Virus record (IMG/VR): IMGVR_UViG_3300036766_001530
Length of the DNA: 56,938 nucleotides
Strand: one strand, 5' to 3'
Origin: an uncultured virus (IMG/VR IMGVR_UViG_3300036766_001530)
Lineage: Duplodnaviria; Heunggongvirae; Uroviricota; Caudoviricetes
Part shown: in pieces, positions 368-56,938 of the stretch
Layout: every line of letters starts with the position of its first letter
Position numbering within the stretch: the first letter of the stretch is position 1
Notes under the pieces: model-generated
What the model saw: the letters and a program-made list of their open reading frames with translations, nothing else
Databases searched by the model: none
Told to the model about the DNA's origin: nothing
Translations under genes and position numbers: made by a program

Positions 368-408
368 GTGAGTCGCGGAGCGACGAACTCCGCTCCGGTC
401 CGGATCAA

Positions 409-481
409 ACGAGCGTAGCTCAGCGGCTAGAGCGTCCGCCCCACACGCGGAAAGTCGAGGGTTCAAGTCCCTCCGCTCGTA
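409..481 (+). tRNA. tRNA-Val(CAC), C33
   Basis: ACGAGCG/CGCTCGT acceptor; TCCGC-ccCACac-GCGGA; GAGGG-TTCAAGT-CCCTC. Confidence 0.85.
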
Positions 482-1594
482 CTAGCCCCGCAGCGCCTTC
501 CGCGCCGCCATGCGAGCGCCCATCGTGTCACCGGCCTGGTAGCGAGACAGTCCCTCACGACCTTGATCGGTGATCGTGACCTTCACCAGCCTCGGCTGCC
601 GCTCGCCCCCGAAGCTCGGCTCGTTCAGGAAGTCCCACGTCGCCATGTTCCGACCCTTGAGATCGCAAGCCGTGTAGTAGGTCGACATGTCCACGTCCTG
701 GTAGACGTGCTCGCCACCTTTGTTGACGAGATCCGCGAGCAGCTCGGCCTGCTTCTTCGAGACCGGCTTCGGTGGTGGGAGAGGCTTCGCCGGCTTCGCT
801 CCTCGACGAGCCGTGGGTGGAGGAGGTGGAAGACCCTGGGAGGAAGCGAGCTGACGCCGCACGTAGTCGAAGTAGCTCGGCTTGGTCGCACCACGAATCG
901 TCGTGAACATCATCATGGGCCGCTGATGTTCGAGCCAGGCGAGGAGTGTTGCTCCGGGGCGATTGGCCCCAGCGGGCGCCGGCAACGATCGCAAGAGCTT
1001 CTGCGTCGCCTCCGAGTAGTACCAGGCTCGGCCCTCTGCCACCTGCGAGACCTGCGGCTCGGGTAGACGGCCGAGCTTCTCTGGCGAGTAGATCCAGGTT
1101 GCGGTGCGACCACCAAGCACCTTGATGTCACTCTCCAGGCCGGAAATCTGAGTCTTGGTCGCGTGTTTCTTCGTCTCGACCGCCGCTTCCCAGCTCTGGC
1201 AGTAGCCGCTGCCGTACTCGCCCTTCCAGCCCGGGCTGATCGCGATGCTCTTGGTCGGCCGCTTCCCTCCCCACTCCCTCTTTCGAGTCGGATCGGCAAC
1301 GTCGATGTAGAGGGACGTCACACGACCTGCGTTCAGATCCGCGAGGTACTGCCGCTCATTCACGAGCCAGGCTTCGAGCTTGCCCTTCCAGTGCTTCGTG
1401 AACTCGCACGACAGCTCGAACGGTAGGTGCCCTTCTCCAGCGCAACGCCCGACCGTCTCGCCCGTCCCAGGTCGCCGATACCCGTGCAGGACCAGCACCG
1501 GATCTTTCGAGCGAGCTTTCGGCTTGACGATTTGCTGTCGGAGGCAGGCCTGACAGGTGCCCTGGAACCGCTTGTCATCGTCGCTCATGGGCAC
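482..1594 (-). CDS. Hypothetical protein with N-terminal Cys/His motif
   Basis: 370-aa ORF filling the gap between two tRNAs; CQAC...H...C. Confidence 0.75.
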   Translation of the reverse strand: MPMSDDDKRFQGTCQACLRQQIVKPKARSKDPVLVLHGYRRPGTGETVGRCAGEGHLPFELSCEFTKHWKGKLEAWLVNERQYLADLNAGRVTSLYIDVADPTRKREWGGKRPTKSIAISPGWKGEYGSGYCQSWEAAVETKKHATKTQISGLESDIKVLGGRTATWIYSPEKLGRLPEPQVSQVAEGRAWYYSEATQKLLRSLPAPAGANRPGATLLAWLEHQRPMMMFTTIRGATKPSYFDYVRRQLASSQGLPPPPPTARRGAKPAKPLPPPKPVSKKQAELLADLVNKGGEHVYQDVDMSTYYTACDLKGRNMATWDFLNEPSFGGERQPRLVKVTITDQGREGLSRYQAGDTMGARMAARKALRG

Positions 1595-1628
1595 ACGCTA
1601 CCAGAAGTAGAGCCTTGCATCACCACTT

Positions 1629-1708
1629 GGAGCCGTAGGGGAGCCAGGCCGTCCCCGCTGGTCTGTCACACCAGAGATCGCTGGGTTCAAATCCCGCCGG
1701 CTCCGCCA
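1629..1708 (+). tRNA. tRNA-Asp(GTC) with encoded CCA
   Basis: GGAGCCG/CGGCTCC-G-CCA; CTGGT-ctGTCac-ACCAG; TTCAAAT T-loop. Confidence 0.85.
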
Positions 1709-1811
1709 TCGTCAGTCCACTGCCGCCGTCTCGGAGGCCAAGAGTTGGTAGCCTTCCGGGTGCGAAAGCATGAGTCGCGGAGCGACGAATTCCGCTCCGG
1801 TCCGGTCCGAT

Positions 1812-2096
1812 TCATTCCACCGCCGCCGTCTCAGGAACGAGAAGCTGATAGCCCTCCGGGTGCGAGAGAAGCTCGGGGAACATCTCGGCCAGTCGCAGGC
1901 TCTCACAACGACGAAGCGTCTCTGGCGATCCACCGATCTCGACTTCGTAGGCTTCGCAGTCGTCCGAGCAGGTGCAGGTCCCCGACACGATGCGGACGGC
2001 TTCGGCGTAGCGCCAGGGACCGCGGCCCGTGAGCAGCCGGCCGATTTCCCTGTAGTCGAGGTCCAGACCGAGACGGGGCGGCATTCCGGAAACCAC
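1812..2096 (-). CDS. Small hypothetical protein
   Basis: 94-aa ORF; its 3' end is duplicated at 1712-1770 with mostly synonymous changes, implying coding constraint. Confidence 0.6.
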   Translation of the reverse strand: MVSGMPPRLGLDLDYREIGRLLTGRGPWRYAEAVRIVSGTCTCSDDCEAYEVEIGGSPETLRRCESLRLAEMFPELLSHPEGYQLLVPETAAVE

Positions 2097-2162
2097 CTCT
2101 TCCTATATGATACCCCAGCGTGAGTCGCGGAGCGACGAACTCCGATCTGGGTTCCGGTTCCG

Positions 2163-2235
2163 GCTGGCGTAGCTCAATCGGCAGAGCGGTTGCTCTATAA
2201 GCGAAGGGTTCCCGGTTCGATCCCGGGCGCCAGTA
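2163..2235 (+). tRNA. tRNA-Ile(TAT), C33
   Basis: GCTGGCG/CGCCAGT acceptor; imperfect stem GTTGC-tcTATaa-GCGAA; CCCGG-TTCGATC-CCGGG. Confidence 0.75.
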
Positions 2236-2244
2236 CGAATTCAC

Positions 2245-2329
2245 GCGGTCGTGGTGAAACTGGAAACCACGCAGGCTTGAGGTGCCTGTGGGCGAAAGCC
2301 CGTTGGGGGTTCGAGTCCCCCCGACCGCA
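2245..2329 (+). tRNA. tRNA-Leu(GAG)
   Basis: CAGGC-ttGAGgt-GCCTG; long variable arm GGGC-GAAA-GCCC. Confidence 0.9.
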
Positions 2330-2335
2330 CAAGAA

Positions 2336-2596
2336 CTAGCGCCTGTCGATATGCCTCTCGACAAGCTTCATCATCTCCATCATGTTCGCCGAGCGCTTCC
2401 CGAGCACGAGCGCGAGCTTGCTGTCGGCGACGATAACGCGACCGTCGCTGGGCGACTGGAGCTTGTGCCGCTTGATGTAGCCCCAGAGCTTCTTGACGAT
2501 CTGGGCGCTCGGCAGCGGCTTGTGACCAACGATCGCCCCGAGGGTGGAGTCGACGCGGACCGGACGTGAAAGGGCGCGAGAGAGCTTTCGTGGCAT
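2336..2596 (-). CDS. SWIB/MDM2 domain protein
   Basis: LGAIVG...QIVKKLWGYIKRHKLQSPSDGRVIVADSKLALVLG...MMEMMKLVERHI is a typical stand-alone SWIB; start placed at MPRKL. Confidence 0.85.
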   Translation of the reverse strand: MPRKLSRALSRPVRVDSTLGAIVGHKPLPSAQIVKKLWGYIKRHKLQSPSDGRVIVADSKLALVLGKRSANMMEMMKLVERHIDRR

Positions 2597-2753
2597 GGGC
2601 AGGAACCTCCTGCCGGGCAACGTAGCACGAGACTCCGGCACTCCGAAAAAGACGAAGGGCCCGGGTGAACTACCCCGAGCCCCTCGCGGTCCGCCAGCCG
2701 CAGACCAGCCGGCTTCCAGAAGTATCAGGACTAGAGATTCAAGTCAATACCCT

Positions 2754-2838
2754 GCGAGGGTGGCGGAATTGGCAGATCGCGCATCGTTCAGACCGATGTG
2801 GGGGCAACCCCGTGGAGGTTCGAGTCCTCTCCCTCGCA
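2754..2838 (+). tRNA. tRNA-Leu(CAG)
   Basis: CATCG-ttCAGac-CGATG; variable arm GGGG-CAA-CCCC; repeat element begins at 2841. Confidence 0.9.
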
Positions 2839-2883
2839 CAGTGAGCCGCGAAGCGGCGAACTCCGAGTCCGATCCGGACTCAA

Positions 2884-2958
2884 GCCGGCGTGGCCCAACC
2901 TGGTAGAGGCCTCGTCTCAAAAACGAGTCATGTGCGAGTTCGAGTCTCGCCGCCGGTA
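2884..2958 (+). tRNA. Atypical tRNA, anticodon CAA (Leu) on a short-variable-arm body
   Basis: GCCGGCG/CGCCGGT; CTCGT-ctCAAaa-ACGAG; GCGAG-TTCGAGT-CTCGC; no long variable arm. Confidence 0.7.
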
Positions 2959-3046
2959 CTGAAATCCAGATCAGAAAACCCAGATCAGAAAAACCCGGAG
3001 TGCGCCGCTTCGCGGCTTACCCTGTAGAATGAAAGGAGGTGACGCC

Positions 3047-3610
3047 GTGACTGCTCTTGCTCTCGAAGGAAGAAGGGTTCTCGTAGTAGATGCCGGTCTC
3101 CAACCGGTCAACATCGTCTCGTGGCGGAGGGCCATGTGTCTCCTCTTCTCGGGGGAAGACGACGACGAGCCGCCCAAGGTCATCGAGTGGAGCGAGGACG
3201 GTGCCGTCATCACGAGCCCATCGCGCAACTACCCGCTGCCCTCCGTCATCCAGCTCGGCAGCATGCTGGCGCCATGGCGGCGCCGGCCAAAGTTCTGTCG
3301 CAAGAACGTCCTCGTCGGCCGTGACCGGTGCGTCTGTCAATACTGCGGACGCCAGTTCTCGACCGAAGGGCTGACGCTCGATCACGTCACGCCGCGAGCG
3401 CAGGGAGGAACCACCACCTGGGAGAACACGGTCGCAGCCTGCGTGCCGTGCAACCAGAAGAAGGCCAACCGAACGCCCGTGCAGGCCGGCATGCGCCTCG
3501 TGCGCAAGCCCGTCCGCCCGCGCGACATCATGGAGTCCGAGGTCCGGCAGAACCCCAGGGGCGCTCCGCCCGAGTGGAAGAACTACTGGACCGGCCGGCT
3601 GCTCCCGTAG
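3047..3610 (+). CDS. HNH endonuclease (McrA-like)
   Basis: RDRCVCQYCG...TLDHVTPRAQGG...WENTVAACVPCNQKK; RBS AAAGGAGGT precedes GTG 3047. Confidence 0.92.
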   Translation: MTALALEGRRVLVVDAGLQPVNIVSWRRAMCLLFSGEDDDEPPKVIEWSEDGAVITSPSRNYPLPSVIQLGSMLAPWRRRPKFCRKNVLVGRDRCVCQYCGRQFSTEGLTLDHVTPRAQGGTTTWENTVAACVPCNQKKANRTPVQAGMRLVRKPVRPRDIMESEVRQNPRGAPPEWKNYWTGRLLP

Positions 3611-3668
3611 GTGAGCCGCGAAGCGGCGAACTCCGCTCTGCTCCGTTCCGTGCTCGCCTCCGGGGAAT

Positions 3669-4136
3669 TTACTTCCCCGGAGCGTTGGCGGCGAGCACCT
3701 TCAGACTTTCCACCAACTCGGCCACCATCGCAGCTCCAGCTTCCGCCTCAGCCTGCCGCAAAGCCCTCTCGGTCTCGACAAGCTTGTGATCCAGATCCCT
3801 CATCTTGAGGCGGATCTCATCCTTGGCCTTCTCGTCTCGCGCACGAACCACATCCAGCAACAGGCCCATGTACGAGCTGGCCACCCCCTCGTAGAGACGT
3901 GCCCGGTTGTAGTACCGACATGCAGCCGTGGCAAAGAGTCGTCCGACAGCAAGCTGCTTTTCCAGAGCCAGCATGAACTCGCGGTTGTCCTGCGCGCTCT
4001 CTCGCCGAAACCTCTCCCATTTCTTCTCCCTCTCGCGAGCCGTCCGATCGATGAACAGAGACAAGCGAAACTTGTCGAGCCAGAACAGAAACGAAAGAGC
4101 AAGGAGAAAGCAGACACCGATCACCGTCAGAGGCAT
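3669..4136 (-). CDS. Membrane-anchored coiled-coil hypothetical protein
   Basis: N-terminal hydrophobic helix followed by charged helical sequence. Confidence 0.6.
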   Translation of the reverse strand: MPLTVIGVCFLLALSFLFWLDKFRLSLFIDRTAREREKKWERFRRESAQDNREFMLALEKQLAVGRLFATAACRYYNRARLYEGVASSYMGLLLDVVRARDEKAKDEIRLKMRDLDHKLVETERALRQAEAEAGAAMVAELVESLKVLAANAPGK

Positions 4137-4153
4137 GGTCCATAAATCTTACC

Positions 4154-4226
4154 GCCCTCGTAGCTCAGTGGATAGAGCGCTGATCTCCGACATCAGAGGC
4201 CGTGAGTCCGAGTCTCACCGAGGGCA
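4154..4226 (+). tRNA. tRNA-Arg(CCG)
   Basis: GCCCTCG/CGAGGGC; CTGAT-ctCCGac-ATCAG; variant T-loop TCCGAGT. Confidence 0.85.
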
Positions 4227-4239
4227 CAGTTAGTTTTCA

Positions 4240-4312
4240 GGGCCCGTAGCTCATCTGGAAGAGCGCTCGCCCCGCAAGCGAGAGGCGGAAGGTTCAAGTC
4301 CTTTCGGGTCCA
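4240..4312 (+). tRNA. tRNA-Ala(CGC), C33
   Basis: G3:U70 Ala determinant; CTCGC-ccCGCaa-GCGAG. Confidence 0.9.
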
Positions 4313-4313
4313 C

Positions 4314-4388
4314 GCCGGTGTAGATCAGCGGTAGATTGCGTCCTTGGTAAGGACGAGGTCGCGAGTTCAATCCTCGCCGCCGGCTCCA
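4314..4388 (+). tRNA. tRNA-Thr(GGT) with encoded CCA
   Basis: CGTCC-ttGGTaa-GGACG; GCGAG-TTCAATC-CTCGC. Confidence 0.9.
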
Positions 4389-4389
4389 T

Positions 4390-4463
4390 GCGCTCGTAGC
4401 TCAGACGGACAGAGCGGCGGTTCCCTAAACCGCAGGTCGACCGTTCGATTCGGTCCGAGCGCA
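4390..4463 (+). tRNA. tRNA-Arg(CCT), C33
   Basis: GCGCTCG/CGAGCGC; GCGGT-tcCCTaa-ACCGC; A20 in the D-loop. Confidence 0.85.
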
Positions 4464-4661
4464 CGTGAGCCGCGAAAGTGAGTCGCGAAGCGGCGAACTC
4501 CGAGTCCGATCCGGTTTCTCCGACGACGTCTTCTATTACCTTGTCTATCCCAACTTGCGCCCATGCTGTAAACGCGGCATGGTGAGCCGCGAAGCGGCGA
4601 ACTCCTGATCCGGTCCGGTCCGGTTTAACCCCGTTCCTTGCCCCGGCTCGTCCAAGCCTCC

Positions 4662-4696: not shown

Positions 4697-4957
4697 GTGC
4701 AGGTCAAGCCAGCCTACGATCTGACCGGCCAGGTCTTCGGCCGCCTCACGGCCATCAAGGTCGTGAAGAAGGATCGCGCTCGGCGCTACTACTGGCTCTG
4801 CCGCTGCCGCTGCAACCCCAACCGGACGACTGTCGTCAGGGCCGACTACCTCAAGGGTGGAGTCATCGAAAGCTGCGGATGTCTGCGCGTGGATCTGCGC
4901 CGCAGCGGCATGACGATCCGAGCGGCTCTGCGACGCCTTGCGCCTCGCGCCGCCTAA
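4697..4957 (+). CDS. Stand-alone N-terminal module of phage AP2/HNH-associated proteins
   Basis: DLTGQVFGRLT...WLCRCRC...L..G...SCGCL motif; no nuclease or AP2 domain follows. Confidence 0.75.
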   Translation: MQVKPAYDLTGQVFGRLTAIKVVKKDRARRYYWLCRCRCNPNRTTVVRADYLKGGVIESCGCLRVDLRRSGMTIRAALRRLAPRAA

Positions 4958-6234
4958 GGCTTGTCGTCCTTATGACCCCAGGCTTCCTTGAGAGTGCCGA
5001 GAAGCCACCCGAAGGAAGCGACACCACCGCCGCTTCCTCCATCGCCACCTCCGCTCCTCTTCGCAGCCCTATCTGCCCGGCGCTGAGCGCGAAGAGCCTG
5101 ACGATCTGCCTCTACCTTTTTCCCCAGATCGTTGTTCTTGAGAGCATCCTGATTCGCCTTCTCGGACTCACGGTCCATGTCCTTCCACAACCTTCGCATC
5201 CCGCGCTCGGCCTGCTCTTGCTCGCGCAACCCTTCGCCGTTCGCGTACTTCTCGTATTTCTCGACCTCGCGCTGATCGATCTCCTTCTGAACCAGAGCCT
5301 TCTCGGCAAGCCGCCGAGTCGTTGTGCCGCTGGGGGAATCGAGCCAGGACTTCACTGCACGCGAGGCCTCGTCTCGCTTCATGCCGAAGGCCAAGATCGC
5401 GGACGACTCGATCGAGGCTACGTCGCCAACCAACGACCGCTCGGTGAGAGACGGTCGAAACGAAACGAGATCGTCAACCGCATCCATAGCTCGACGTCTT
5501 GACCAGCTTGCGAACGCGAGCTTCGCACGCGCGACGTCTCCACCGGTGTGTGGCGTGAGCAGCTCGACGACATCACCTCTCGTTTCCAGAGCTTCTTGCC
5601 AGAGTCCCCGGACAAGTTCGTCTTCGACACCCTTCGGTTGGACGCTCGCCTCGACACCCTTCGGTTGGACGCTCGCCTCGACACCCTTCGGCTGAACGCT
5701 CGCCTCGACACCCTTCGGCTGAACACTCGCCTCGACACCCTTCGGTCGAGGGATGATCTCCGGCTCGACATCGACGTCAATGACAAGCGGCTCCAACCTG
5801 GTGGGAGCCGGCTCGCCCTCCACCACCGCGGCTGGTCCCTTGTGATCTCGCTCTTTCCCCCGCTCGATACCCAGCTTCACCACCTCGGGCTCGTACCACA
5901 ACGAGCTGCGAGTGCCCTGCATCGCAGAACCGAAGTAACCGAGGTTGGCCAAGTACACGACTCGCGTGAGCGGCAGCGAATAGTTCTCGGCAATGTCGGG
6001 CCTGGTCAACCAGCTCTCGCAGCCATCTGGAGGTATCGGCTTGTGACTCGTCACATTAGAAAGGATACCCCAACCCTCCCGATCGCTACTCTGGAATGTC
6101 ACACTGGAATTCGATCTCCCTGGGCTCCTTTTGATCACTAGGATTACCGACGGAGATTCGACGTTATGAAACGACGTCGGCGCCCAACTATAGAATTCGA
6201 TCTTTCTAACATGGTTGGCACCAGGCTGCTTCAC
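4954..6234 (-). CDS. Hypothetical protein with PKGVEASVQ tandem repeats
   Basis: 426-aa ORF; the internal 27-bp repeat is in frame. Confidence 0.6.
   Translation of the reverse strand: MKQPGANHVRKIEFYSWAPTSFHNVESPSVILVIKRSPGRSNSSVTFQSSDREGWGILSNVTSHKPIPPDGCESWLTRPDIAENYSLPLTRVVYLANLGYFGSAMQGTRSSLWYEPEVVKLGIERGKERDHKGPAAVVEGEPAPTRLEPLVIDVDVEPEIIPRPKGVEASVQPKGVEASVQPKGVEASVQPKGVEASVQPKGVEDELVRGLWQEALETRGDVVELLTPHTGGDVARAKLAFASWSRRRAMDAVDDLVSFRPSLTERSLVGDVASIESSAILAFGMKRDEASRAVKSWLDSPSGTTTRRLAEKALVQKEIDQREVEKYEKYANGEGLREQEQAERGMRRLWKDMDRESEKANQDALKNNDLGKKVEADRQALRAQRRADRAAKRSGGGDGGSGGGVASFGWLLGTLKEAWGHKDDKP
5624..5745. repeat. 27-bp tandem repeat, about 4.5 copies
   Basis: TCGACACCCTTCGGTTGGACGCTCGCC units. 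Confidence 0.95.
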
Positions 6235-6605: not shown

Positions 6606-7067
6606 ATGGCTCTGCATCTGACCCAGTCCGACATCATCCGCTTCAAGCACCAGGCGGAGGCGATGAAGAATCGTGCAAAGGCTGCCTTGGAGAAGGCAGA
6701 CGGCGCGGTCGACACGCTCATCCGGTCCTCCGAGGTCGCTGTCTCGGCGTTCGCCTTCGGCGTTCTCCAGGGCAAGTTCAAGAAGCAGGGCGGTGTCACG
6801 CTGCTCGGCATCCCCGTCGATCTGCTCTCGGGCGTGGGCTTCCACGTCCTCGGGCTGGCCGGCGTCGGCGGCCGGAACGCGCATCACCTCCACGCCTTCG
6901 GCGACGGTGCCCTGGCGTCCTACTTCACCACGCTCGGCCGGGGAGTCGGCGCGAGCTGGGGTGGCGGCGTCGCGGGAGCCATCGAGGGCGACCGTGCGGT
7001 GACGGGCGGTGGGAGCCTGGCCGACGAGGAGCTGGCGCGCATGGTGAGCGCGGCGGCCCGCAAGTAG
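6606..7067 (+). CDS. Putative virion membrane protein
   Basis: RBS AAGGAG; Gly/Ala-rich hydrophobic helices; first gene of the + strand block. Confidence 0.75.
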   Translation: MALHLTQSDIIRFKHQAEAMKNRAKAALEKADGAVDTLIRSSEVAVSAFAFGVLQGKFKKQGGVTLLGIPVDLLSGVGFHVLGLAGVGGRNAHHLHAFGDGALASYFTTLGRGVGASWGGGVAGAIEGDRAVTGGGSLADEELARMVSAAARK

Positions 7068-7269
7068 GTGAGTCGCGGAGCGACGAACTCCGGTCCGGAC
7101 TCCGGTCCGAACCAGGGAACCAAGCTCACAAGCTCCTCAAGCAAAAGCAGCCGGCGACCAGGCCGGTAGCAAGAGTCCGAAACCCGAACCCGAAACCCGC
7201 TCCCGACAATCAACCCCACCAATTCCGGTGGGCACGAGACCCCGGGAGTTGAACGAAAGAAGGATCAAC

Positions 7270-7896
7270 ATGCGTACGGACATCGTGGGAGCCTCCGAGA
7301 TCGTCGGCGACGACGTGCTCGACGGCGACATCTTCGGAGACGTCGAAGGCGACGCCTTCGTGGGCGACGAATCGGCCGGGGACATCGACGCGCTCATGGG
7401 CGCGTGGTACAACCCCCTGTCGTGGGGCCGCACCAAGGGCCCCTCGGCCCAGCAGCGGGCCATGGCCCTCCAGCAGCAGAGGGCGGCGGCACAGTCCGCG
7501 CTGGCTCGTCGTCGCGTGTCGGAGGGTTCGATCCTCCGCGACGTGGCGCCGACCAAGAGCCGGGAGTACATCCTCGGCTTCGACGTGACGTCCATCCCGG
7601 GCGGCGCGAGCGCGAACATCACGAAGAGGCCCCAGGTCATCTTCCGGCCGGAGCGGGTGATCATCCCCTCGACGGTCGGTGTGAACTTCCAGGTCCTCGA
7701 CGTGAAGGTCGGAAAGAACTCGCAGTTCACCGCGAGCGGCTCCGTCCCCGCCGTCGTCTTCGCCGAGACGTCGTTCGGCGTCCGCCTGAAGATGGACACC
7801 TGCCAGGTGTCGATGGACGTGACCCTGAGCGTCCAGAACACCAACGCGAACGCGCAGAACTTCACCGCCGCCATCATCGGCCCGGCGGTCGAGTAG
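7270..7896 (+). CDS. Candidate major capsid protein (single jelly-roll-like) with acidic propeptide
   Basis: Strong codon bias; acidic N-terminus with GDAFVG; C-terminal ~110 aa of alternating beta-strands (ILGFD...RPQVIFRPERVII...FQVLDVKVG...VTLSVQN...FTAAIIG). The fold is inferred. Confidence 0.55.
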   Translation: MRTDIVGASEIVGDDVLDGDIFGDVEGDAFVGDESAGDIDALMGAWYNPLSWGRTKGPSAQQRAMALQQQRAAAQSALARRRVSEGSILRDVAPTKSREYILGFDVTSIPGGASANITKRPQVIFRPERVIIPSTVGVNFQVLDVKVGKNSQFTASGSVPAVVFAETSFGVRLKMDTCQVSMDVTLSVQNTNANAQNFTAAIIGPAVE

Positions 7897-8243
7897 GTGA
7901 GTCGCGAAGCGACGAACTCCGATCTGGACTCCGGGTTTCTTCCGGGTTCCTGACCAGAGCCGGGTGGTGAGCCCGGATCGTCGCTTCGCACCCGCTTTCT
8001 GTTTTTCGCCGTAGCGAGACCCGCTCGGCCCCGGTGGTGAACCGGGCAAATCGTGGGGGTCGTCCCCGGCGGCGCGTTTCCTGAAAGTCCCAGGAACGCG
8101 CCGTCCGGGGGCTACTTTCGGAAGGGGATGGCTCCCTCCGCAACTGTTCGATTCGGTTGCTTCCGACCAAAACTAAATAGTCCCCGAAGCAGACCGTCCC
8201 CACGGCCGTTCGCTCCGGGAGTCCTTTCGAGAAAGGAAACGCA

Positions 8244-8827: not shown

Positions 8828-8921
8828 TTGCCGCCATGCCGATGCCCATGATCCAGTTCGGTGAGCTGCGAAGCAGCGAACTCCGCTCCGGCTCCGGTCC
8901 GAACCATCAGGAGATCACCTG

Positions 8922-10328
8922 ATGCCGATGCCCACGATCCAGTTCAAGCTCAAGCTCTTCCGGGGCGACTGGGACCAGGCACGTTCGCAGGTCGCTCTGC
9001 TCTGGCTCATGGAGGCGCTCGTCCGCCAGAACCAGAGCCACATCCGGCAGTTCGTCTCGCTCGCCAAGCGCGGCATCATCAAGGAGCCGTACCCGCGCCT
9101 CTATCGCGCAGGTGTCCACTACGAGCGCGAGCCGCCCGGCCAGGAAGTCTGGCCGGATGTGCCGACCATCCTGGAGACCAAGGACGGCGAGTTCTCCGGC
9201 CCCTGGGGCGACTGCTTGCCCGTCTCGACGCTCGTCGCCAAGTACAACGACAAGGGCGACGCCCAGATGTTCCCCTTCGGCTCGCTCAAGATCGGCGATG
9301 TCATCGTCGAAGGAGGACCGTCTCAGATCGCTCCAACCGGGCGCACAATGGTGCTGGAATTCGCCGAGACTGGCGAAAAAGAAATCATCGCTTTCCGCCT
9401 GGCCCACCCCTACGGAACTCCAAGAACACTCCGCTGCTCACCAGAGCACAAACTCTTCCTCCTCGAAGGTGAAAAGGAAGTCAGAGCCAAGAATGTAAGG
9501 CCCGGCGATCAGCTCCTCGGAGGAAGCAACGGCAAGTACGGGGGGCTCAAAGTCATCGAGATCACCACTCCGGGGAAAGAACGCTGCGCCGACATCAAGA
9601 CGGCCAGTGGTCGCTTCTGGCTTCCGGAATCCGACGCCATCGTCCACAACTGCGAAGACCTTGCATGCTGGCGCACGGCCGAGCTGCGCGAGCTGGGCAA
9701 CATCAAGGCCAAGCCATTCGCCAAGTGGCGCTTCGGCAAGAGCGGCAACTACCACTACCACGCGCTCACGCTTCTGCCCGACGGCCGACTCGAAGATCCG
9801 AGCCTGACGCTCGGCATGGGCCGCGAGGCCTTCTTCGCCAAGCACGACATCGTGGATCGCTACAAGAAGGGCGAGCTGAAGCCCCTCGTCATGTTCGCCA
9901 AGCTGCCCGACGTCATCGTCGTCGATCCGGAAAAGCCGACCGGCTACTCGGGCGGCAAGGCCGACTACTACCAGCAGGGCGTCTCGGGAACCGGTGCCCG
10001 CCCCGACGAGCTGGCCGCCTGGGGATACGACCACAACGATGTCCGAGGTGCCGACATGGCGGCCCTACGAGACATGACCTCCGGCATGAGCCGCGTCGAC
10101 CACATGGGCTCGTTCTCGGCCATGACCCAGCTCCCCGACATCTCGACCGCCGACATCGTCATGGGCGGAGCGCGCCACAAGATCGTCTCCAAGCACGAGC
10201 GCGAAGTCGACGACGACGGCAATACGCTCGACGCCATGATCGGCTGGAACGGCAAGACCTTCGTGCCACGCTCGGACGCCGAGGCCATGCGCCGCCTCAT
10301 GGGCTACGGGGCCGGAGGAGGTCGCTGA
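8922..10328 (+). CDS. Transglutaminase-like cysteine protease (putative maturation protease), intein-containing
   Basis: After splicing it reads WGD-CEDLACWRTAEL...YHALTLLPDGRLEDPS, a Cys-His-Asp triad in transglutaminase-like context. Confidence 0.75.
   Translation: MPMPTIQFKLKLFRGDWDQARSQVALLWLMEALVRQNQSHIRQFVSLAKRGIIKEPYPRLYRAGVHYEREPPGQEVWPDVPTILETKDGEFSGPWGDCLPVSTLVAKYNDKGDAQMFPFGSLKIGDVIVEGGPSQIAPTGRTMVLEFAETGEKEIIAFRLAHPYGTPRTLRCSPEHKLFLLEGEKEVRAKNVRPGDQLLGGSNGKYGGLKVIEITTPGKERCADIKTASGRFWLPESDAIVHNCEDLACWRTAELRELGNIKAKPFAKWRFGKSGNYHYHALTLLPDGRLEDPSLTLGMGREAFFAKHDIVDRYKKGELKPLVMFAKLPDVIVVDPEKPTGYSGGKADYYQQGVSGTGARPDELAAWGYDHNDVRGADMAALRDMTSGMSRVDHMGSFSAMTQLPDISTADIVMGGARHKIVSKHEREVDDDGNTLDAMIGWNGKTFVPRSDAEAMRRLMGYGAGGGR
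9213..9650 (+). mobile_element. Mini-intein, 146 aa, no homing endonuclease
   Basis: Starts CLPVSTLV; block B LRCSPEHKLF; VRAKNVRPGDQL; ends IVHN followed by extein Cys. Confidence 0.92.
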
Positions 10329-10380
10329 TGAAGATCGCCACTCAATACGGACCGGAGCGGAATTCGTCGCTCCGCGACTC

Positions 10381-12434: not shown

Positions 12435-12497
12435 GGTGAGCCGCGAAGCGGCGAACTCCGATCTGGTCCGAACAAAAATCTGAAAGGGACTCGACCA

Positions 12498-40540: not shown

Positions 40541-41393
<853 letters not shown>

Positions 41394-41394
<1 letters not shown>

Positions 41395-41684: not shown

Positions 41685-41696
41685 CGAAGGACGACC

Positions 41697-42653: not shown

Positions 42654-42673
42654 TTTGGAGCAGAATCTCCACC

Positions 42674-46738: not shown

Positions 46739-47266
46739 ATGGCCCAGGCCCAGCACATACACAGCATCGCCTGCCTCTCGGCTGTCGGGGGCCGCGTGAC
46801 CTGTTTCTTTGGCGATCAGAAACGAGCCGTGCGCGTTCCCGTCGTGACGCAGATTCCACATCGCAATCGCCCGACCTCGGCTCCCCGACCCTACGACTCG
46901 CGAGCCAGCCTTCCTCGGGGACCCCGGCCGGCGGCCCGCATCCCAAGGACTCCGAAACTCACGCGGGCCCAGCGCGCCGCGCTACCTGACTGGTGCTTTG
47001 CGATCCCGGAGACCCGCGACTACCCGCTCACCGGCAAGCACAAGAACTGGGACCCGTACCAGGCGAAGCTCGCCCTCGCGCAGGTGGCGCGGCTCGCGAG
47101 TCAGAAGGGTCCGAACCCCAAGATCGCCCGCCGCGTGATCGAGCGAATCGCTCGCATCTTCCCCGAGGTCTACCGCTGCGAGCTGGACCTCGTCCAGCGG
47201 ATCGCGATCCGCCATCGGATGAGTCGCGGCGCGACGAATTCCGCTCCGGTCCGAAGAAGGTACTGA
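46739..47266 (+). CDS. HxH-C-C tag family protein
   Basis: MAQAQHIHSIACLSAVGGRVTCFFG; C-terminus supplied by a hairpin element. Confidence 0.75.
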   Translation: MAQAQHIHSIACLSAVGGRVTCFFGDQKRAVRVPVVTQIPHRNRPTSAPRPYDSRASLPRGPRPAARIPRTPKLTRAQRAALPDWCFAIPETRDYPLTGKHKNWDPYQAKLALAQVARLASQKGPNPKIARRVIERIARIFPEVYRCELDLVQRIAIRHRMSRGATNSAPVRRRY

Positions 47267-47625
47267 TGCCCACCCACAAACACTCACTCACCTGCCTGGA
47301 TACCAAGTCCTTCTTCAAGGGCAAGGGAATGCTCTGCAAGGTCACCCACCGCTACGTCAACCTTGATCGTGGCAAGGTCTCCGAGAAATGGCCGTTGCCT
47401 CCACAAGCCCTTCTCGATCTGTTCCGACAATCCGGCAAAGACGTCAGCCGCAAGACACTCCAGGCCGTCCAGCGATTCATCGCCAAGCTCCCGCTCAAGG
47501 ACGAGCACGACAACGCGAGCGCCGCCGCGCACTACCGCAAGATCGCAGCTCGCCACAGTCGGCGAGGTGGCGCTGGCCTCCTTGCCGACGCTTACTACGA
47601 GATCGCCAACCAGCTCTGGAACTGA
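47266..47625 (+). CDS. HxH-C-C tag family protein
   Basis: MPTHKHSLTCLD...MLCKVTH. Confidence 0.75.
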   Translation: MPTHKHSLTCLDTKSFFKGKGMLCKVTHRYVNLDRGKVSEKWPLPPQALLDLFRQSGKDVSRKTLQAVQRFIAKLPLKDEHDNASAAAHYRKIAARHSRRGGAGLLADAYYEIANQLWN

Positions 47626-47630
47626 CCAAC

Positions 47631-48041
47631 ATGAGCCACAACCACCACCACAACCTCTCGTGTCTCGGGGATCTGCCGAACGGCGATCTCTACTGCAAGG
47701 TCACGGGCGCCTCTCGCATGACCGCGGCCGAACGCGAGACGGCCACCGAAGCCCAGCTCGGAAAATCCCGGGCTCGCCTTCGTGGACCCGCGTCCAAGAA
47801 GCCAGCGAAGAGCCGTGCGACGAACGACAAGCGATGGTCCGGCCGCTTCTTCCGAAGCCTCGACAGCATGCGCGAAATGAAGATCACCCACGGGATGCGC
47901 TCGCCTCGCCCACTCAGCCACAAGGCGCAAGAGCTGGCCAGCCGTTACATCGCCGAAGAGATGAAGACCGGCAAGTACGAACGCCAGCAAGCGATCGCAA
48001 TCGGAATCAGCCGAGCCCGCCGTGAAACTGGAGAAGAGTGA
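47631..48041 (+). CDS. HxH-C-C tag family protein
   Basis: MSHNHHHNLSCLGDLPNGDLYCKVTG; the stop codon is the TGA of the element at 48038. Confidence 0.8.
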   Translation: MSHNHHHNLSCLGDLPNGDLYCKVTGASRMTAAERETATEAQLGKSRARLRGPASKKPAKSRATNDKRWSGRFFRSLDSMREMKITHGMRSPRPLSHKAQELASRYIAEEMKTGKYERQQAIAIGISRARRETGEE

Positions 48042-48099
48042 GTCGCGAAGCGACGAACTCCGGTCCGAATCCGGATCTGAACCAAGCAAAGGAAGACGG

Positions 48100-54933: not shown

Positions 54934-54987
54934 TCTGCCCGACAACCGCAAACCTCTTCCACAACTCGAACCACAGGAGATTCCATC

Positions 54988-55608
54988 ATGGCCCAACAGC
55001 TTCACTCGACCGGCTGCGCCGGACTCAACGCCTACATCCCCCTCATCGTGCCACCCGTCAACTCGGACGGCCCTCTCACGAGCGTCGCCAACCTGATCGC
55101 CGAGAAGACCATCTACCTCACCGGGACCTTCAACGGTGAGTACATCGTCCTCGGATCGCACGACAACGTCGACTTCGTGCCGATCGCGAAGTTCAACGGG
55201 AACGGCAATCCCCAGAGCGCCAAGCTCCAGGTGGACGCCGCTCTCAACACCGTTCGTGTCCGCCGCAACGCGGACGCGGGTGCGGTCATCACGGTGGCAT
55301 CGCGACTCACCTGCGCCTGTGTGGCGCCCCAGGAAGGGGGTCCCTTCTTCGGCGCCGCGGCCCCCTCGGGCGAAGCCCCAACTCCAATGGCCAAGGCGCC
55401 CGCGGCCCACGCCGCCACGCCCAAGGTCCCGACGATGAGCGTCACCCCGCCGGCCCCCGTGACCTCACAGGCCATCCCCAAGCCGGGCACCAAGGGAAGC
55501 GCCTACGCCGCCGCCAAGCCCGGGGCCAAGCGCGCAGATCCACCTGCCGCGCCGACCGCCGCTCCCGCGGCTCCGAAGGCGAGCGTCAAGGCTCCCAAGA
55601 GGAAGTAG
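54988..55608 (+). CDS. Base-module protein with Ala/Pro/Lys-rich tail
   Basis: EKTIYLTGTFNGEYIVLGSHD...LTCAC resembles the module in 28556. Confidence 0.8.
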   Translation: MAQQLHSTGCAGLNAYIPLIVPPVNSDGPLTSVANLIAEKTIYLTGTFNGEYIVLGSHDNVDFVPIAKFNGNGNPQSAKLQVDAALNTVRVRRNADAGAVITVASRLTCACVAPQEGGPFFGAAAPSGEAPTPMAKAPAAHAATPKVPTMSVTPPAPVTSQAIPKPGTKGSAYAAAKPGAKRADPPAAPTAAPAAPKASVKAPKRK

Positions 55609-55884
55609 CAAAGCTCTCCCCGCGTCGCTCTTCTGCCGGGAAGAGCGACACGGGTTCAATCCTGTCATCCGGCCAAAACCCACCACTCGGGGACGGTGAG
55701 TCGCGAAGCGACAAACTCCGATCCTCTCTCCCCCGTCCCAACAGTCAACCAACTCAAATAGTCCAAACCGCTTCACGCTCTGGCCGGGAAGTGCGACGCG
55801 GGTTCACTCCTGTCATCCGGCCAAAAACCACCGCTCGGGGACGACCCCCACGAAGTTTCCAGGCGGAAGAAAGAGAAAAGAGTC

Positions 55885-56520
55885 ATGCCCGATCCGACAC
55901 AGCAGTTCTCCCCCGAGGTCCTCGCGCAGGCCAAGCTCCTACTCGAAATCAAGGAGCGCATCCTCGACGTCAAGAGGAACCTGCCGAACGCTGCCTACCC
56001 GGCCCAGCTCCGGGAGGTCGTAACGCAGCTCACTCACGCTGTCGAGCTGCTCGCCTTCGGCCACGTCACCGAGGCCGGCTCGAACCAGATGATGGGCATG
56101 ATAGCTGGAGCACCAGACGGTGGTCAGCGAGTGCAAATCTTCATGCCGACTCCCTCGGCCGCCATCCCACGCCCCGAACAGCCCGCCTTCGAGATCCTGC
56201 CGGCGCCTCCCGCTCCCACGCCGGTCGTCACCGTGGCTCCGGTCGGCGGCGGATCGCTCGAAGCTGCCATGGCCGCCCTCGCCGGACGTCCGGCGCCGGC
56301 CCCGGCTCCCGCGCCTGCCGGCCCTCCGAATGGTGGGGCTCCGATCATGGGCCCGATGCCGATCATGCGTGGCGGACCCGCGCTCGATCCGCAAGCCGCC
56401 GCCGCGATGGCCGCGCTCGCCAACGCCAGGCCGGCTCCCGTCGCAGCCCCGACCCCAGGGCTATCGGTCGAGATTTTCCCGGCCGGCGATCCGAGGGCCC
56501 CCATGCCGAGCGGCGGGTAA
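55885..56520 (+). CDS. Pro/Ala-rich hypothetical protein
   Basis: 211-aa ORF; helical N-terminus then low complexity. Confidence 0.7.
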   Translation: MPDPTQQFSPEVLAQAKLLLEIKERILDVKRNLPNAAYPAQLREVVTQLTHAVELLAFGHVTEAGSNQMMGMIAGAPDGGQRVQIFMPTPSAAIPRPEQPAFEILPAPPAPTPVVTVAPVGGGSLEAAMAALAGRPAPAPAPAPAGPPNGGAPIMGPMPIMRGGPALDPQAAAAMAALANARPAPVAAPTPGLSVEIFPAGDPRAPMPSGG

Positions 56521-56558
56521 ATGAGCAGGTAGGCAGGAGACTGACGGACTAACGGACG

Positions 56559-56777
56559 ATGCCAGCCCTCGGATCACCGATGCCTCGCTACGACGCCGAC
56601 GAAGGGGCGTTCGAGGAGCATTTCGACATCCCGTACTCGGACTTCGTCCTCGCCGTCGCGTCGCTCGATCAGCAGGCACAAGATCAATACGGCAGAACCT
56701 ACGAAGCAAACCCCGAAGCTGCGATCCTCTGGGCCATCAAGGTGTGCAAGGAGCGTGGTATCCTCGAAGAGGATTAG
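56559..56777 (+). CDS. Small acidic hypothetical protein
   Basis: 72-aa ORF; start may be ATG 56580. Confidence 0.55.
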   Translation: MPALGSPMPRYDADEGAFEEHFDIPYSDFVLAVASLDQQAQDQYGRTYEANPEAAILWAIKVCKERGILEED

Positions 56778-56938
56778 CCAAGAAGCGACGGTCAGATCCG
56801 ATTCAAAATTCACCAGCCAGGGACGACCCCCACGAAGTCCATGGCCGACACCAACAACCAATCGAAAAACCACCTGACCCAGAGTTCGCCGCTCTGCGGC
56901 TCACCGTGGCGTGGAACCGGACCGGATCTGACCCGGAG

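Follow-up and report, generated by a model that had tools for sequence, protein, structure and literature searches.

The window analysed here, a stretch of 56,938 nt that represents half of a 118.9-kb contig, belongs to an uncultured GC-rich phage and carries tRNA, HNH, structural and other genes. Between these genes, and in some cases inside them, there are about 27 copies per 57 kb of a short hairpin element whose 24-nt core is GTGAGYCGCGRAGCGRCGAAYTCC. A pattern search for this core allowing up to three mismatches gave 26 matches in the whole window, 22 on the + strand and four on the minus strand (cores at 2997, 10359, 11923 and 56881); none of 100 shuffled controls contained any match, and none was expected. 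An unfiltered scan of the window with a covariance model, which had been proposed as a check, recovered the identical 26 copies with 38-51 bits, the next-best match reaching 15 bits. In addition to the full matches there are one diverged copy (31404) and one partial copy (4465), and no decayed copies other than that at 31404 were found by the same scan. The element reported in an earlier, sequence-only reading, with about 26 copies and some 85% of them on the + strand, is therefore confirmed. The strand bias is supported as genuine, the structured strand being the one that carries the GNA loop. Along the arm the copies keep one orientation, which reverses at the right end of the window, close to the middle of the contig. 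The density is uneven: the first 18 kb contain 18 copies and the following 39 kb eight. With respect to read support, Logan contigs from the probable source run span the flanks of the copies but break within the repeats.

In the left part of the window several copies are neighbours of tRNA genes. The copy at 368-402 (+), which has a T-A stem and a GGA loop, precedes tRNA-Val, located 17 nt past its core, and adjoins a tRNA-like 5' fragment (316-367). This fragment had been taken for a tRNA truncated by the element, but it is no more than tRNA-like: it contains a D-arm-like stretch, ARAGORN makes no call, and its sole Rfam match is weak (YrlA, E = 0.17). The copy at 1770-1809 (+), of the ATGAG...GAAT subfamily, is bordered on both sides by a 57-nt direct repeat that has diverged (1712-1768 and 1812-1868) and corresponds to the 3' end of a minus-strand gene, and that at 2120-2162 (+) has the start of a minus-strand gene on one side and tRNA-Ile, 19 nt past the core, on the other. 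The copy at 2841-2876 (+) begins 1 nt past tRNA-Leu(cag) and is followed, 19 nt past its core, by tRNA-Leu(caa), which is bracketed on the other side by the copy at 2996-3020 (minus strand), a GTAAG variant with a T-rich tail located 27 nt upstream of an HNH gene start. A partial copy (4465-4477, +), consisting of the 5' arm and the loop (12-13 nt), lies with no gap between tRNA-Arg and the full copy at 4478-4522 (+). The latter has a hybrid stem (T8.G18) and a tail in common with 2841, and constitutes the first member of a tandem pair with 4582-4622 (+), whose 28-nt flank repeat (25/28) comes from the start region of an HNH-like gene. Thus, both the abutment on tRNA 3' ends (2841 and 4465) and the 13-nt partial self-copy preceding a full one had been correctly described.

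Other copies are placed at gene boundaries. Those at 3611-3650, 7068-7109 and 7897-7933 (all +) directly adjoin the TAG stops of an HNH gene (3029-3610) and of genes 6606-7067 and 7228-7896, respectively, and that at 12436-12470 (+) lies 1 nt past a TAG stop, in agreement with the earlier description. The copy at 8861-8901 (+) has a C-T/A-G stem and a 24-nt flank repeat from the start of gene 8922. That at 15074-15108 (+) is flanked by a perfect 46-nt repeat (15028-15073 and 15126-15171) from the start of the downstream gene; the short ORFs that pass through these two copies end at TGATG. Another member of the ATGAG subfamily (10348-10382, minus strand) is found between a stop at 10328 and a start at 10381. 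The copies at 17554-17584 and 17698-17737 (both +) are units 1 and 2 of a tandem array, the former just preceded by a 49-nt copy of a gene-start region and the latter having an 86-nt flank repeat. Further to the right, a GCGAG variant (31653-31689, +) is located upstream of an SLT-domain gene, and the copy at 55696-55720 (+), nearly devoid of the TCCG tail, shows a 76-nt diverged flank repeat of a structured non-coding stretch. At the right end lies the copy at 56880-56904 (minus strand), with an AGA loop, and the final 34 nt of the window resemble the tail of another minus-strand copy lying beyond it. The distance from the end of the core to the next feature is 17-19 nt for three tRNAs and 22-39 nt for at least six start codons. 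Copies 1770 and 3611 are directed towards the 3' ends of minus-strand genes.

Several copies are located in frame within genes. That at 18122-18157 (+) lies inside an ORF of 2185 aa with coding signal on both sides, and the diverged 27th copy (31400-31440, +), which retains the TCCG/TCTG tail, is inside an ORF of 993 aa. At 34560-34595 (+), within ORF 33932-35182, 60 nt are accounted for by the core (24), the tail (20) and a 16-nt repeat, and the peptide VSGWH is duplicated around the copy. The copy at 39602-39636 (+) is read in frame by the terminal part of an ORF, and the stop codon of that ORF overlaps the ATG at 39648. In the copy at 41138-41172 (ACGAG...GAGT, +), within ORF 40477-41394, both outer pairs are changed and the coding signal of the ORF ends at the copy. 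One copy is reversed inside an ORF (11917-11946, minus strand, in ORF 11616-12434), its tail being expanded to 21-nt repeats that encode a PAS-rich linker. A further copy of the ATGAG subfamily (47219-47253, +), with a GGC loop, lies where ORF 46739-47266 terminates at its 3' end, the stop being at TGATG, and that at 48038-48079 (+) provides with its own TGA (48039-48041) the stop of ORF 47388-48041. In total, five read-through ORFs end with a stop that overlaps the next start; together with the in-frame copies, these overlaps look like the accommodation of an intruder.

The hairpin is longer than previously described, since outer pairs G3-C23 and T4-A22 and two tandem sheared G.A pairs extend the inner 5-bp stem. 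All 130 cells of the inner stem are paired, as are 181 of the 182 cells of the seven pairs, the outer two of which also covary. Compensatory changes are present in four of the seven pairs: 3/23 (GC in 21 copies, AU in five), 4/22 (UA in 24, CG in one), 8/18 (UA in 14, CG in 11, UG in one) and 9/17 (CG in 25, UA only in the copy at 8861). None of 500 shuffles reached these pairing and covariation values, and sliding the partner column gives at most 54% of paired cells. The loop is GAA in 18 copies, GGA in six, GGC in one (47219) and AGA in one (56881; n = 26), a GNA loop closed by C-G being found, as anticipated, in 24 of the 26. This C-GNA-G triloop with a sheared G.A pair is the signature of a very stable DNA mini-hairpin (PMC13037366). 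T24 and C25 are invariant across copies. In the diverged copy at 31404 the inner hairpin is identical, and the four outer positions on each side are replaced, all of them by Watson-Crick pairs. Because of this replacement and the compensatory changes, the hairpin must be regarded as being under selection as a structure, and both the covarying 5-bp stem and the selection for structure proposed from the sequence alone are supported.

The core is followed by a tail of zero to three further TCCG/TCTG units. TC[CT]G units reach 2.35 per 30 nt in tails versus 0.31 in the background, and at least two of them are present in 22 of the 26 tails; a general second hairpin was not seen in the tail. It had been proposed that each copy bears a different run of TCCGG-like units. 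The enrichment in units supports this description, but not all tails are different: copies 12436 and 15074 have 44 nt of core and tail in common (95% identity), and copies 2841 and 4478 have 42 nt (90%). Since related copies have tails in common, these are inherited and not made anew each time, which disagrees with the earlier suggestion of an enzymatically added break-repair tag. In the array, units 17554 and 17698 have identical cores (24/24) and a single difference in the 86-nt flank, whereas their tails show about nine differences and a 6-nt indel. The tail is thus passed between related copies, yet it diverges much faster than the flanks.

Direct repeats of 16-86 nt flank eight of the 26 copies, the upstream repeat ending 0-1 nt before GTGAG. 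Their identity ranges from 75% to 100%, some having diverged to about 75-85%. An exact flank suffix of at least 8 nt is repeated downstream of five of the 26 copies, versus 1.9% of random places, and three reiterations (4465/4478, 4478/4582 and 17554/17698) restart at GTGAG. In the left part of the 17554 array, identity jumps from about 70% to 100% at a gene end. Additional tandem copies are present in the source run, outside the window. The element has therefore been duplicated along with pieces of its flanks, the new junction always falling exactly at the 5' G of GTGAG; a common cut-site motif was not seen in the 5' flanks. The idea of an actively inserted element finds support in these junction repeats, in the 60-nt in-frame insertion at 34560 and in the tandem units, but this support does not extend to 17 of the 26 copies, which have no flank repeat. 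A comparison, available as coordinates, with a relative in run X4 points in the same direction: X4 is about 183 nt shorter over 2632-3031, which approximates the 180-nt unit formed by a copy, a tRNA and an inverted copy. This comparison provided no empty site as sequence. Homology with X4 runs only over 11946-12435, a stretch delimited exactly by the 5' edges of two copies, also as coordinates. The 7897 copy occupies the same position in X4, with two substitutions in the tail.

Enzymes that could move or read the element were searched for in the window. No transposase, reverse transcriptase, primase or HUH/Y1 enzyme was detected among 215 ORF translations of these 57 kb, in line with the sequence-only reading as to transposase and reverse transcriptase, nor in 57 PHROG scans, a result that covers the window but neither the remaining 62 kb of the contig nor the host; integrase, RNA polymerase, virion RNA polymerase and RAYT were likewise not found in the window. 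Searches did not find the element in any other genome and yielded no relative and no host repeat family, and Rfam gave no family match. The analogy with the target signals of diversity-generating retroelements is not supported by any reverse transcriptase, TR or VR.

Our preferred, though still tentative, explanation is that of a short (25-45 nt) non-autonomous and strand-specific element that acts as folded single-stranded DNA, similar to REPs or to the ends of IS200/IS605, and that is cut and joined by an unseen enzyme. Its anatomy comprises a 4-nt 5' tag (GTGA), the 5-bp hairpin with its GNA triloop, and a 3' tetranucleotide (GAAC) whose pairing with the tag involves two Watson-Crick pairs and two sheared G.A pairs; next come an invariant TC and the run of TCCG/TCTG units. 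In IS200/IS605 ends and REPs, a guide tetranucleotide 5' of the palindrome picks the cut site by base pairing; TnpA-REP cleaves single-stranded DNA on both the 5' and the 3' side of the REP and stays on the 5' phosphate, and the bound 5' end can accept any 3'-OH (PMC8266576). Here, tag and 3' tetranucleotide covary. The enzyme, most likely of the HUH/Y1 single-strand nicking-joining kind, would be encoded outside the visible half of the genome, by the phage or its host. It would cut at the foot of the folded structure, presumably 5' of GTGAG and at GAAC|TCCG, the cut 5' end being joined to other 3' ends; tail units could be altered by repeated cutting and rejoining or by slippage. Alternatively, a hairpin-protected 5' flap might escape flap removal and then be ligated, giving rise to the same local duplications. 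In favour of this explanation are the covarying structure, the layout of tag and tetranucleotide, the tandem units, the GTGAG junctions, the in-frame copies, the X4 polymorphism and the hypervariable tail. Against it, the GTAG tag is found in none of the 26 copies, the tag being GTGA(G) and, unlike that of REPs, pairing with the far side. Also against it are the enzymes not found in the window, the 17 copies lacking a flank repeat, the X4 comparison with no empty site as sequence, the element not found in other genomes, the TCCG-unit tail that REPs lack and the 5' flanks with no common cut-site motif. Moreover, no copy other than 31404 is decayed, although some flank repeats have diverged to about 75-85% identity, so that a selected cis-signal fits at least as well as a selfish element.

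A first alternative is a single-strand initiation signal, in which a phage primase or an N4-like RNA polymerase would recognise the GNA hairpin of the + strand; synthesis would begin at the 5' foot of the hairpin and head leftward with the + strand as template, for instance in priming on a displaced or lagging strand, and a recurrent strand discontinuity there would lead to the local duplications. The inner hairpin has the architecture of the promoters used by N4 virion RNA polymerase (PMC4496689, PMC13037366), and mini-hairpins are present at the G4 and ssiA priming sites (PMC13037366). If the loop centre is taken as -11, as in N4, +1 falls one base 5' of GTGAG, precisely where sequence conservation ends and flank repeats abut, and both the orientation, flipping near the middle of the contig, and the core without decayed copies are in agreement. 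However, the product would be antisense to the genes for 22 of the 26 copies, 13 of 26 copies have at the predicted +1 a G, which is ill suited as template for a purine start, and the window has no detectable RNA polymerase or primase. The uneven spacing, the in-frame copies in structural genes and the one reversed inside an ORF also argue against it, and the tail is left unexplained; on balance it seems rather unlikely. The N4 analogy of the earlier reading thus fits in the hairpin and not in the direction. Somewhat less probable still is a role in RNA transcribed with the + strand genes, as a processing, stability or translation-coupling signal in mRNA or pre-tRNA, or as a sense promoter of a phage polymerase with its start near the core/tail border. 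Copies are situated between genes and co-oriented with them, at the short distances from tRNAs and start codons given above. Within 1-20 kb sigma-70-like promoters did not exceed chance, and no intrinsic terminators were seen on the + strand. ORFs pass through the element, which therefore lies inside mRNA, and there is one G.U-type pair, at 4478. But the C-GNA-G loop with sheared G.A is a DNA signature (PMC13037366), copies 1770 and 3611 point at minus-strand gene ends, four copies are inverted, and minus-strand genes would need another type of promoter. The missing Rfam match and the tail without a general second hairpin do not favour RNA either, and the exact GTGAG junctions call for an event at the DNA level.

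Two alternatives remain. In one, the copies would be recombination linkers or cassette boundaries, short common sequences where related phages swap modules, resembling integron attC sites or the PeSL cassettes of T4-type phages. This reading, with the partial duplications as failed or illegitimate exchanges, would account for X4 homology that ends, at 11946 and 12435, no more than 1 nt from the 5' edges of two copies, for flank repeats of such different identity, as if donor and recipient differed, and for the identity switch in the 17554 array; uniform orientation and position after stop codons also recall attC. We regard it as improbable: no integrase was found in the window, attC-type boxes are absent, only two mosaic edges were seen, and these as coordinates, and homologous exchange in a 24-nt core explains neither arbitrary flank junctions nor in-frame copies. 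A telomerase-like tag, hairpin and fresh tail being synthesised on broken 3' ends from an internal template before synthesis resumes upstream, is very improbable. The arrangement of an upstream sequence, the element and that sequence again has the shape of a healed nascent end with upstream re-priming, and the tail is built from short degenerate units; nevertheless, tails common to related copies have been copied, core subfamilies with compensated changes have propagated, no reverse transcriptase was found, and 17 of 26 copies lack a flank repeat.

Among known systems, the REPs mobilised by RAYT/TnpA-REP and the hairpin ends of IS200/IS605 share with the proposed single-stranded DNA element a GC-rich short stem-loop whose palindrome is preceded on the 5' side by a conserved 4-nt tag, a mode of action as folded single-stranded DNA, stem subfamilies with compensated changes, the lack of a gene of their own, a mostly post-gene position with some copies within genes, and tandem units with flank pieces (PMC3733652, PMC8266576). 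In contrast to REPs, which have GTAG and no such tail, here the tag is GTGA pairing with GAAC, the GNA triloop is strict and there is a tail of TCCG units; most copies are single and share one orientation instead of forming head-to-head dimers, and they reside in a phage genome, with no RAYT found in the window. PMC3733652 does not contain the word 'phage'. The N4 promoters share with the element a 5-bp stem, a GGA/GAA loop with sheared G:A, the GCGGAGC/GCGAAGC heptamer and a structured strand resistant to melting, as well as a G at -8, a C at -9 and a hairpin located on the template strand (PMC13037366, PMC4496689). However, they are three, at one genome end and upstream of early genes, whereas at least 27 copies are spread here across tRNA, structural and other genes, mostly in the antisense geometry mentioned above and with no virion RNA polymerase detected. 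The element thus resembles REPs and N4-type hairpins without proof of membership in either. The G4 complementary-strand origin and ssiA of RSF1010 also present a GCGNAGC-type mini-hairpin on a single-stranded template and strand specificity (PMC13037366), although with one or two sites per replicon and a known primase, in contrast to the many copies, repeat tail, in-frame copies and lack of a visible primase in this phage. Rickettsia palindromic elements, and similar small hairpin repeats inserting in frame into genes, are likewise small palindromic repeats tolerated and translated within protein genes. The Rickettsia elements are chromosomal, of about 100-150 bp, and without a GNA mini-hairpin or unit tail. 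These elements are also mentioned in PMC3733652. The site-specific nicks of phiKMV-like, T5-like and tf phages differ in spacing (3 nt here versus 9), in having no hairpin reported in the accessible text and in numbering 3-14 sites per genome; what they have in common with the element is the location of the sites on one strand, and the phiKMV consensus CGACxxxxxCCTA/CTCCGG has CGAC...CTCCGG in common with the core/tail border GCGACGAA CTCCGG (PMC3517423).

The 24-nt core pattern of the element occurs 26 times in the window where none is expected, 22 times on the + strand and four times on the - strand. An unfiltered covariance model, a scan proposed in the sequence-only reading, recovers exactly the same 26 copies at 38-51 bits, the next match scoring 15 bits; a diverged copy at 31404 and a partial copy at 4465 are found besides. 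Copy number and strand bias are as that reading had described them, and so are the covarying stem and the GAA or GGA loops. All 130 cells of the 5-bp stem are paired, with compensated changes (UA 14, CG 11 and UG 1 at one pair; CG 25 and UA 1 at another), and the loop is GAA in 18 copies, GGA in six and other in two (n = 26).

The structure extends beyond this stem. The first four bases, the GTGA tag, lie opposite the GAAC that follows the stem and form the pairs G3-C23 and T4-A22 together with two sheared G.A pairs. The tag is GTGA in 21 copies, ATGA in four and ACGA in one, with GCGA and GTAA as variants, and the outer pairs covary (ATGA...GAAT in four copies, ACGA...GAGT in one). Over seven pairs, 181 of 182 cells are paired and four pairs show changes on both sides, shuffled and slid controls falling far below. 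In the diverged copy at 31404 both inner hairpin and tail are preserved, and the outer AGCG...CGCT forms four Watson-Crick pairs. Since the sheared G.A pairs and the GNA loop are present only in the + strand version, the + strand is the structured one. The nearest-neighbour folding energies of the element are unremarkable (z -0.6 to -1.9), such energies not modelling the special stability of GCGNAGC mini-hairpins, which is described in PMC13037366. Core types are not significantly clustered along the window (neighbours alike in 8 of 25 cases, 5.5 expected, P = 0.16). The copies make up a genuine, densely spaced family whose structure is under selection, known so far only from this phage lineage.

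The window has 64% G+C and almost all coding is on the + strand from 6.6 kb onward. Its genes for tRNAs, two HNH endonucleases, a SWIB-domain protein, an SLT-domain protein, a collagen-like tail protein and a 2185-aa protein with three peptidoglycan-binding domains give it the look of roughly half a tailed-phage genome. One window protein, of 423 aa, is listed with a contig of 118,938 nt and has no homologue but itself among 5.8 billion clusters. Eleven tRNA genes lie at 242-4464, and 10 tRNAs are the sole matches of the window in Rfam at the gathering score, the element having none. The SWIB/MDM2 domain is, among bacteria, commonest in the PVC group, and the gene encoding it here (2336-2641, -; Pfam E = 2e-21) may hint at a host from that group. 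In the element-rich tRNA region, a 370-aa protein (482-1594, -) resembles winged-helix regulators (PadR/MarR-like) in its C-terminal part, according to low-scoring matches in an ESM Atlas structure search; this weak likeness is all that it offers as a candidate partner of the element, and it was set aside.

Several other features of the coding sequence were recorded. A mini-intein of 146 aa (9213-9650) corresponds to residues 98-243 of the protein encoded at 8922-10328; it begins with C after GPWGD, ends in IVHN before C and matches Pfam Intein_splicing weakly (E = 0.006). Its 438 nt are the piece missing from the contig of a relative in another sequencing run, X4 (9211-9648 skipped), and it sits inside a G-D-C-E-D-L-A motif, which we take to resemble a transglutaminase-type catalytic cysteine. 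The coding word GGCGACGCCTTCGTCGG (peptide GDAFVG) occurs 9-11 times in several large, presumably structural proteins (7349, 13802, 14591, 21446, 24431, 24953, 25202, 26345, 33634 and others) and may be a shared cleavage or targeting motif. Six genes end in C-G-x-S-C-Y-R-K-G-L followed by the stop (12572-12618, 13232-13278, 14971-15017, 15786-15832, 16448-16494 and 26800-26846). The N-terminus MAFDKDE is common to tandem paralogues at 15126, 15839, 16498 and 16881, and MSKFEDSFQ to five or six genes at 39647-42708. The 41-codon ORF 12499-12622 resembles a miniature chimera of the operon behind it, being composed of the initial 32 nt of gene 12642, which comes next, the GDAFVG motif and the C-terminal motif common to the six genes. 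Tandem repeats include a Gly-rich coding array of 9-nt GGC/GGT units (16051-16176) and four 27-nt repeats (5624-5758) within the minus-strand gene 4954-6234. A second common non-coding motif, similar to GGGACGACCCCCACGAAGT, lies upstream of two gene starts (55838-55858 and 56813-56833), and an earlier instance of it is split by the element copy at 55696. No further repeated non-coding motifs were found in the window, the top words being coding repeats.

The tail is the most variable part of the element. The bases T24 and C25, directly after GAAC, are invariant, and CTCCG is followed by 0-3 more units ending in TCCG or TCTG, so that unit density reaches 2.35 per 30 nt against 0.31 in the background. 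Between the tandem units at 17554 and 17698 the core is identical (24/24) and the 86-nt flank has one difference, while the 28-nt tail shows about nine differences and a 6-nt indel; the 4478/4582 pair repeats this pattern of a tail diverging fast. On the other hand, the copies at 12436 and 15074 are alike over 44 nt of core and tail (95%), and those at 2841 and 4478 have 42 nt in common (90%). Because related copies share core and tail, tails are not made anew. The earlier statement that every copy carries a different tail fails for these pairs, and the proposal of a freshly synthesised, enzymatically added tag is contradicted. A second hairpin in the tail was rejected as a general feature (mean z -0.46 for 26 tails, -0.32 for 60 random 32-mers). 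At 11840-11920, 21-nt repeats that encode an E-P-A-S-P-A-S linker continue the tail of the inverted copy 11923, which is reversed inside an ORF; here an element tail seems to have lengthened until it became a PAS-rich protein linker.

With respect to genes, four copies adjoin stop codons and two adjoin tRNA 3' ends, as had been noticed from the sequence. The four stops are all TAG, which accounts for 17 of 59 stops overall, a preference that is suggestive only. The distance from core end to tRNA start is 17-19 nt in three copies, and that to a start codon is 22-39 nt in six or more. At 18122, 34560, 39602 and 41138 real coding sequence runs through the element in the frame xGT-GAG, with coding signal on both sides of the copy at 18122 and, at 34560, a 60-nt in-frame insertion that duplicates the peptide VSGWH; the copy at 31404 is read in another frame. 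Five read-through ORFs (8861, 15074, 39602, 41138 and 47219) stop overlapping the next start, and ORF 47388-48041 is terminated by the element's own TGA. This gene context has the look of tightly coupled operons making room for an intruder, and not that of a designed signal.

The element starts with GTGAGT and often ends with AG, and a spliceosome-type or self-splicing intron was considered. It was rejected, as removal of 44, 50 or 53 nt at 18122 breaks the frame that is coding on both sides and the genes carry bacterial ribosome sites and overlapping stops and starts. A hammerhead-like core was also discarded, the CUGA turn being missing and Rfam giving no match. Two sigma-70 promoters were found against 1.5 expected, and all but one of 23 terminator-like sites lie on the minus strand. 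The sole strong intrinsic-terminator-like site (2652-2687, -; 14 pairs and then a T run) is just upstream of the SWIB gene, indicating that minus-strand genes rely on other signals.

Direct repeats of 16-86 nt flank eight copies (1770, 4582, 8861, 15074, 17554, 17698, 34560 and 55696). The upstream repeat ends 0-1 nt before GTGAG and the downstream one starts 18-58 nt after the core; the repeat at 34560 has a marginal score, yet its position coincides with the junction. An exact flank suffix of at least 8 nt recurs downstream in five of 26 copies, compared with 1.9% of random places. The repeated piece is whatever is downstream of the copy: a gene start at 4582, 8861, 15074, 17554 and 17698, the interior of an ORF at 34560, a structured non-coding stretch at 55696 and the 3' end of a minus-strand gene at 1770. 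Repeat identity ranges from 100% (46/46 at 15074) to about 75% (1770). Reiteration from GTGAG occurs three times, after 13, 104 and 144 nt, the first case being the partial copy at 4465 before 4478 that the sequence-only reading had pointed out. Joints in the probable run of the window's own sample contain more element-spacer-element pairs, with spacers missing from the window. Flank repeats and reiterations together leave one constant, an arbitrary 3' end joined to the first G of GTGAG. Active insertion, as originally proposed, is favoured by the eight flanked copies and the 60-nt insertion, but 17 of 26 copies have no flank repeat, short target-site duplications included.

Neither IMG/VR nor the metagenome set yielded a relative that bears copies, and none was found in 185,579 species genomes or among 50,697 phage records. 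In IMG/VR the strict pattern gave no match, and looser patterns gave four single matches in one scan and, in another, at least 119 loci with one match each, the 80 listed lying on as many different contigs. Scans of the metagenomes and species genomes yielded 24 and 18 single matches, respectively, all of them without the TCCG tail. The exact 24-mer is present among these only at one locus (L022), and the best covariance score outside the window is 36 bits, against at least 38 inside. The absence of any multicopy genome in the 185,579 speaks against a match to a host REP family, which had been named as a possible refutation. Megablast of window positions 1-50000 against the phage records gave no match, and two window proteins have no related loci in IMG/VR. 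Contigs of three other sediment runs contain short pieces that are about 90-95% identical to the window. Among the matches listed, compared by alignment coordinates and not by sequences, the X4 relative has copy 7897 at the same position, its tail differing by two substitutions. The match of one X4 contig is confined to 11946-12435; it sets in at the 5' edge of the inverted copy and ends 1 nt short of the following one, and the contig has 291 and 1140 additional letters without a counterpart there. In another, 216 letters stand for the window's 399 (2632-3031), and the 183 nt by which it is shorter nearly equal the 180 nt of the unit formed by a copy, tRNA-Leu and an inverted copy (2841-3020).

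The element has the layout of a REP or IS200/IS605 end, i.e. tag, hairpin and pairing tetranucleotide. According to PMC8266576, the cut site in these systems is chosen through base pairing with a guide tetranucleotide that lies 5' of the palindrome. By the same account, TnpA-REP cleaves folded single-stranded DNA to either side of the REP and remains linked to the 5' phosphate, and any 3'-OH can then be joined to that end. Such chemistry predicts arbitrary 3' ends joined to one fixed 5' end, as observed. PMC3733652 reports clusters of REPs that are repeated together with stretches of neighbouring DNA, units within genes and subfamilies with compensated stems. On the favoured reading, held with less than even confidence, a putative single-strand cut-and-join enzyme would act on the folded element, and a cut at GAAC|TCCG would bring the hypervariable tail directly behind the cut site. 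In a more far-reaching and rather unlikely version, a REP/RAYT-like system resident in this phage would be directed to both hairpin feet by the tag-hairpin-GAAC structure. Joining of the cut 5' end (GTGAG...) to a nearby 3' end would then give rise to the duplicated flanks and the tandem units, and also to mosaic borders between related phages. Each TCCG unit would be the scar of one cut-and-rejoin cycle, making the tail a self-recording microsatellite. Hairpin flaps resist FEN1, and local duplications might also, or instead, arise by ligation of a 5' flap starting at GTGAG that the hairpin shields from removal. Duplications of up to 100 bp in rad27 mutants are ascribed to unremoved flaps in PMC13493898.

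Other roles account for some of these observations. The hairpin fits an N4/ssi-like initiation signal exactly, and with N4 numbering +1 falls on the edge of GTGAG; however, 22 of 26 copies would then yield antisense products, the template base at +1 is G in 13 of 26, and in-frame copies are left without explanation. The N4 analogy drawn at the outset is therefore sound for architecture and not for direction. Punctuation of RNA would suit the placement of the copies, but is at odds with the DNA junctions, the inverted copies and those facing minus-strand gene ends. Two mosaic edges and the unequal repeat identities would fit a cassette boundary, a role against which stands the lack of a recombinase in the window search.

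What distinguishes this phage is a dense, strand-biased family of hairpins with three unusual traits: a tag covarying with the far side of the hairpin, a hypervariable tail after an invariant TC, and junctions on the same base. If an enzyme cuts at the element, its small size and defined sequence would make it a system for studying how nicking and joining of single strands remodel a viral genome, by duplicating gene starts, creating short new ORFs upstream, inserting peptides in frame and setting up mosaic borders. If the rather unlikely REP/RAYT-like version is true, the element would be one of the main forces behind changes of gene order and the duplication of gene starts in this lineage. 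Were it a priming or transcription signal instead, it would be the first genome-wide use of an N4/G4-type mini-hairpin.

Small hairpin repeats working in single-stranded form occur in bacterial chromosomes, as REPs, and at a few special phage sites (N4 promoters, priming origins). Integron attC sites, whose box consensus is of the GTTRRRY type, need a tyrosine integrase and an imperfect palindrome with R/L boxes at the 3' ends of their cassettes, while no integrase was found in the window and the core has no such box. DGRs combine a reverse transcriptase with template and variable repeats that differ specifically at adenines; the DGR analogy was not borne out, since no reverse transcriptase was found among 215 window ORF translations and the flank repeats differ by T/C. 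A cognate Y1 (HUH) transposase, whose gene is usually flanked by REPs, is likewise matched by none of the 215 (20 ORFs of at least 100 aa, the other 62 kb and the host being outside the search), in agreement with the earlier remark that neither enzyme is visible in the window. N4-type promoters, as PMC4496689 gives them, have a 5-7-bp stem, a 3-nt purine loop centred at -11 and G at -8, all matched by the element. However, the N4 hairpin is on the template strand upstream of the genes that it drives, whereas 22 of 26 GNA hairpins lie on the coding strand, and in direction the element departs from N4 promoters. A phage using such promoters encodes a giant virion RNA polymerase; here the 2185-aa and 903-aa proteins have no polymerase matches, with about half of the genome in view. 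The folded core (21-27 nt; 26 copies and one diverged) corresponds to REPs as short palindromic repeats (about 20-40 nt, many copies). The REP tag, in contrast, is an unpaired GTAG 5' of the palindrome, while GTGA pairs with GAAC and GTAG is found farther upstream in three copies only via a stop codon. REP families also reside in cellular chromosomes, unlike the element, with its 18 single matches in 185,579 genomes. By tag and by residence it is thus outside REP membership. IS200/IS605-derived elements have two different subterminal hairpins with guide tetranucleotides, against one hairpin per unit here. By analogy, it is still a REP or an IS200/IS605 end that the element would most resemble in its way of working.
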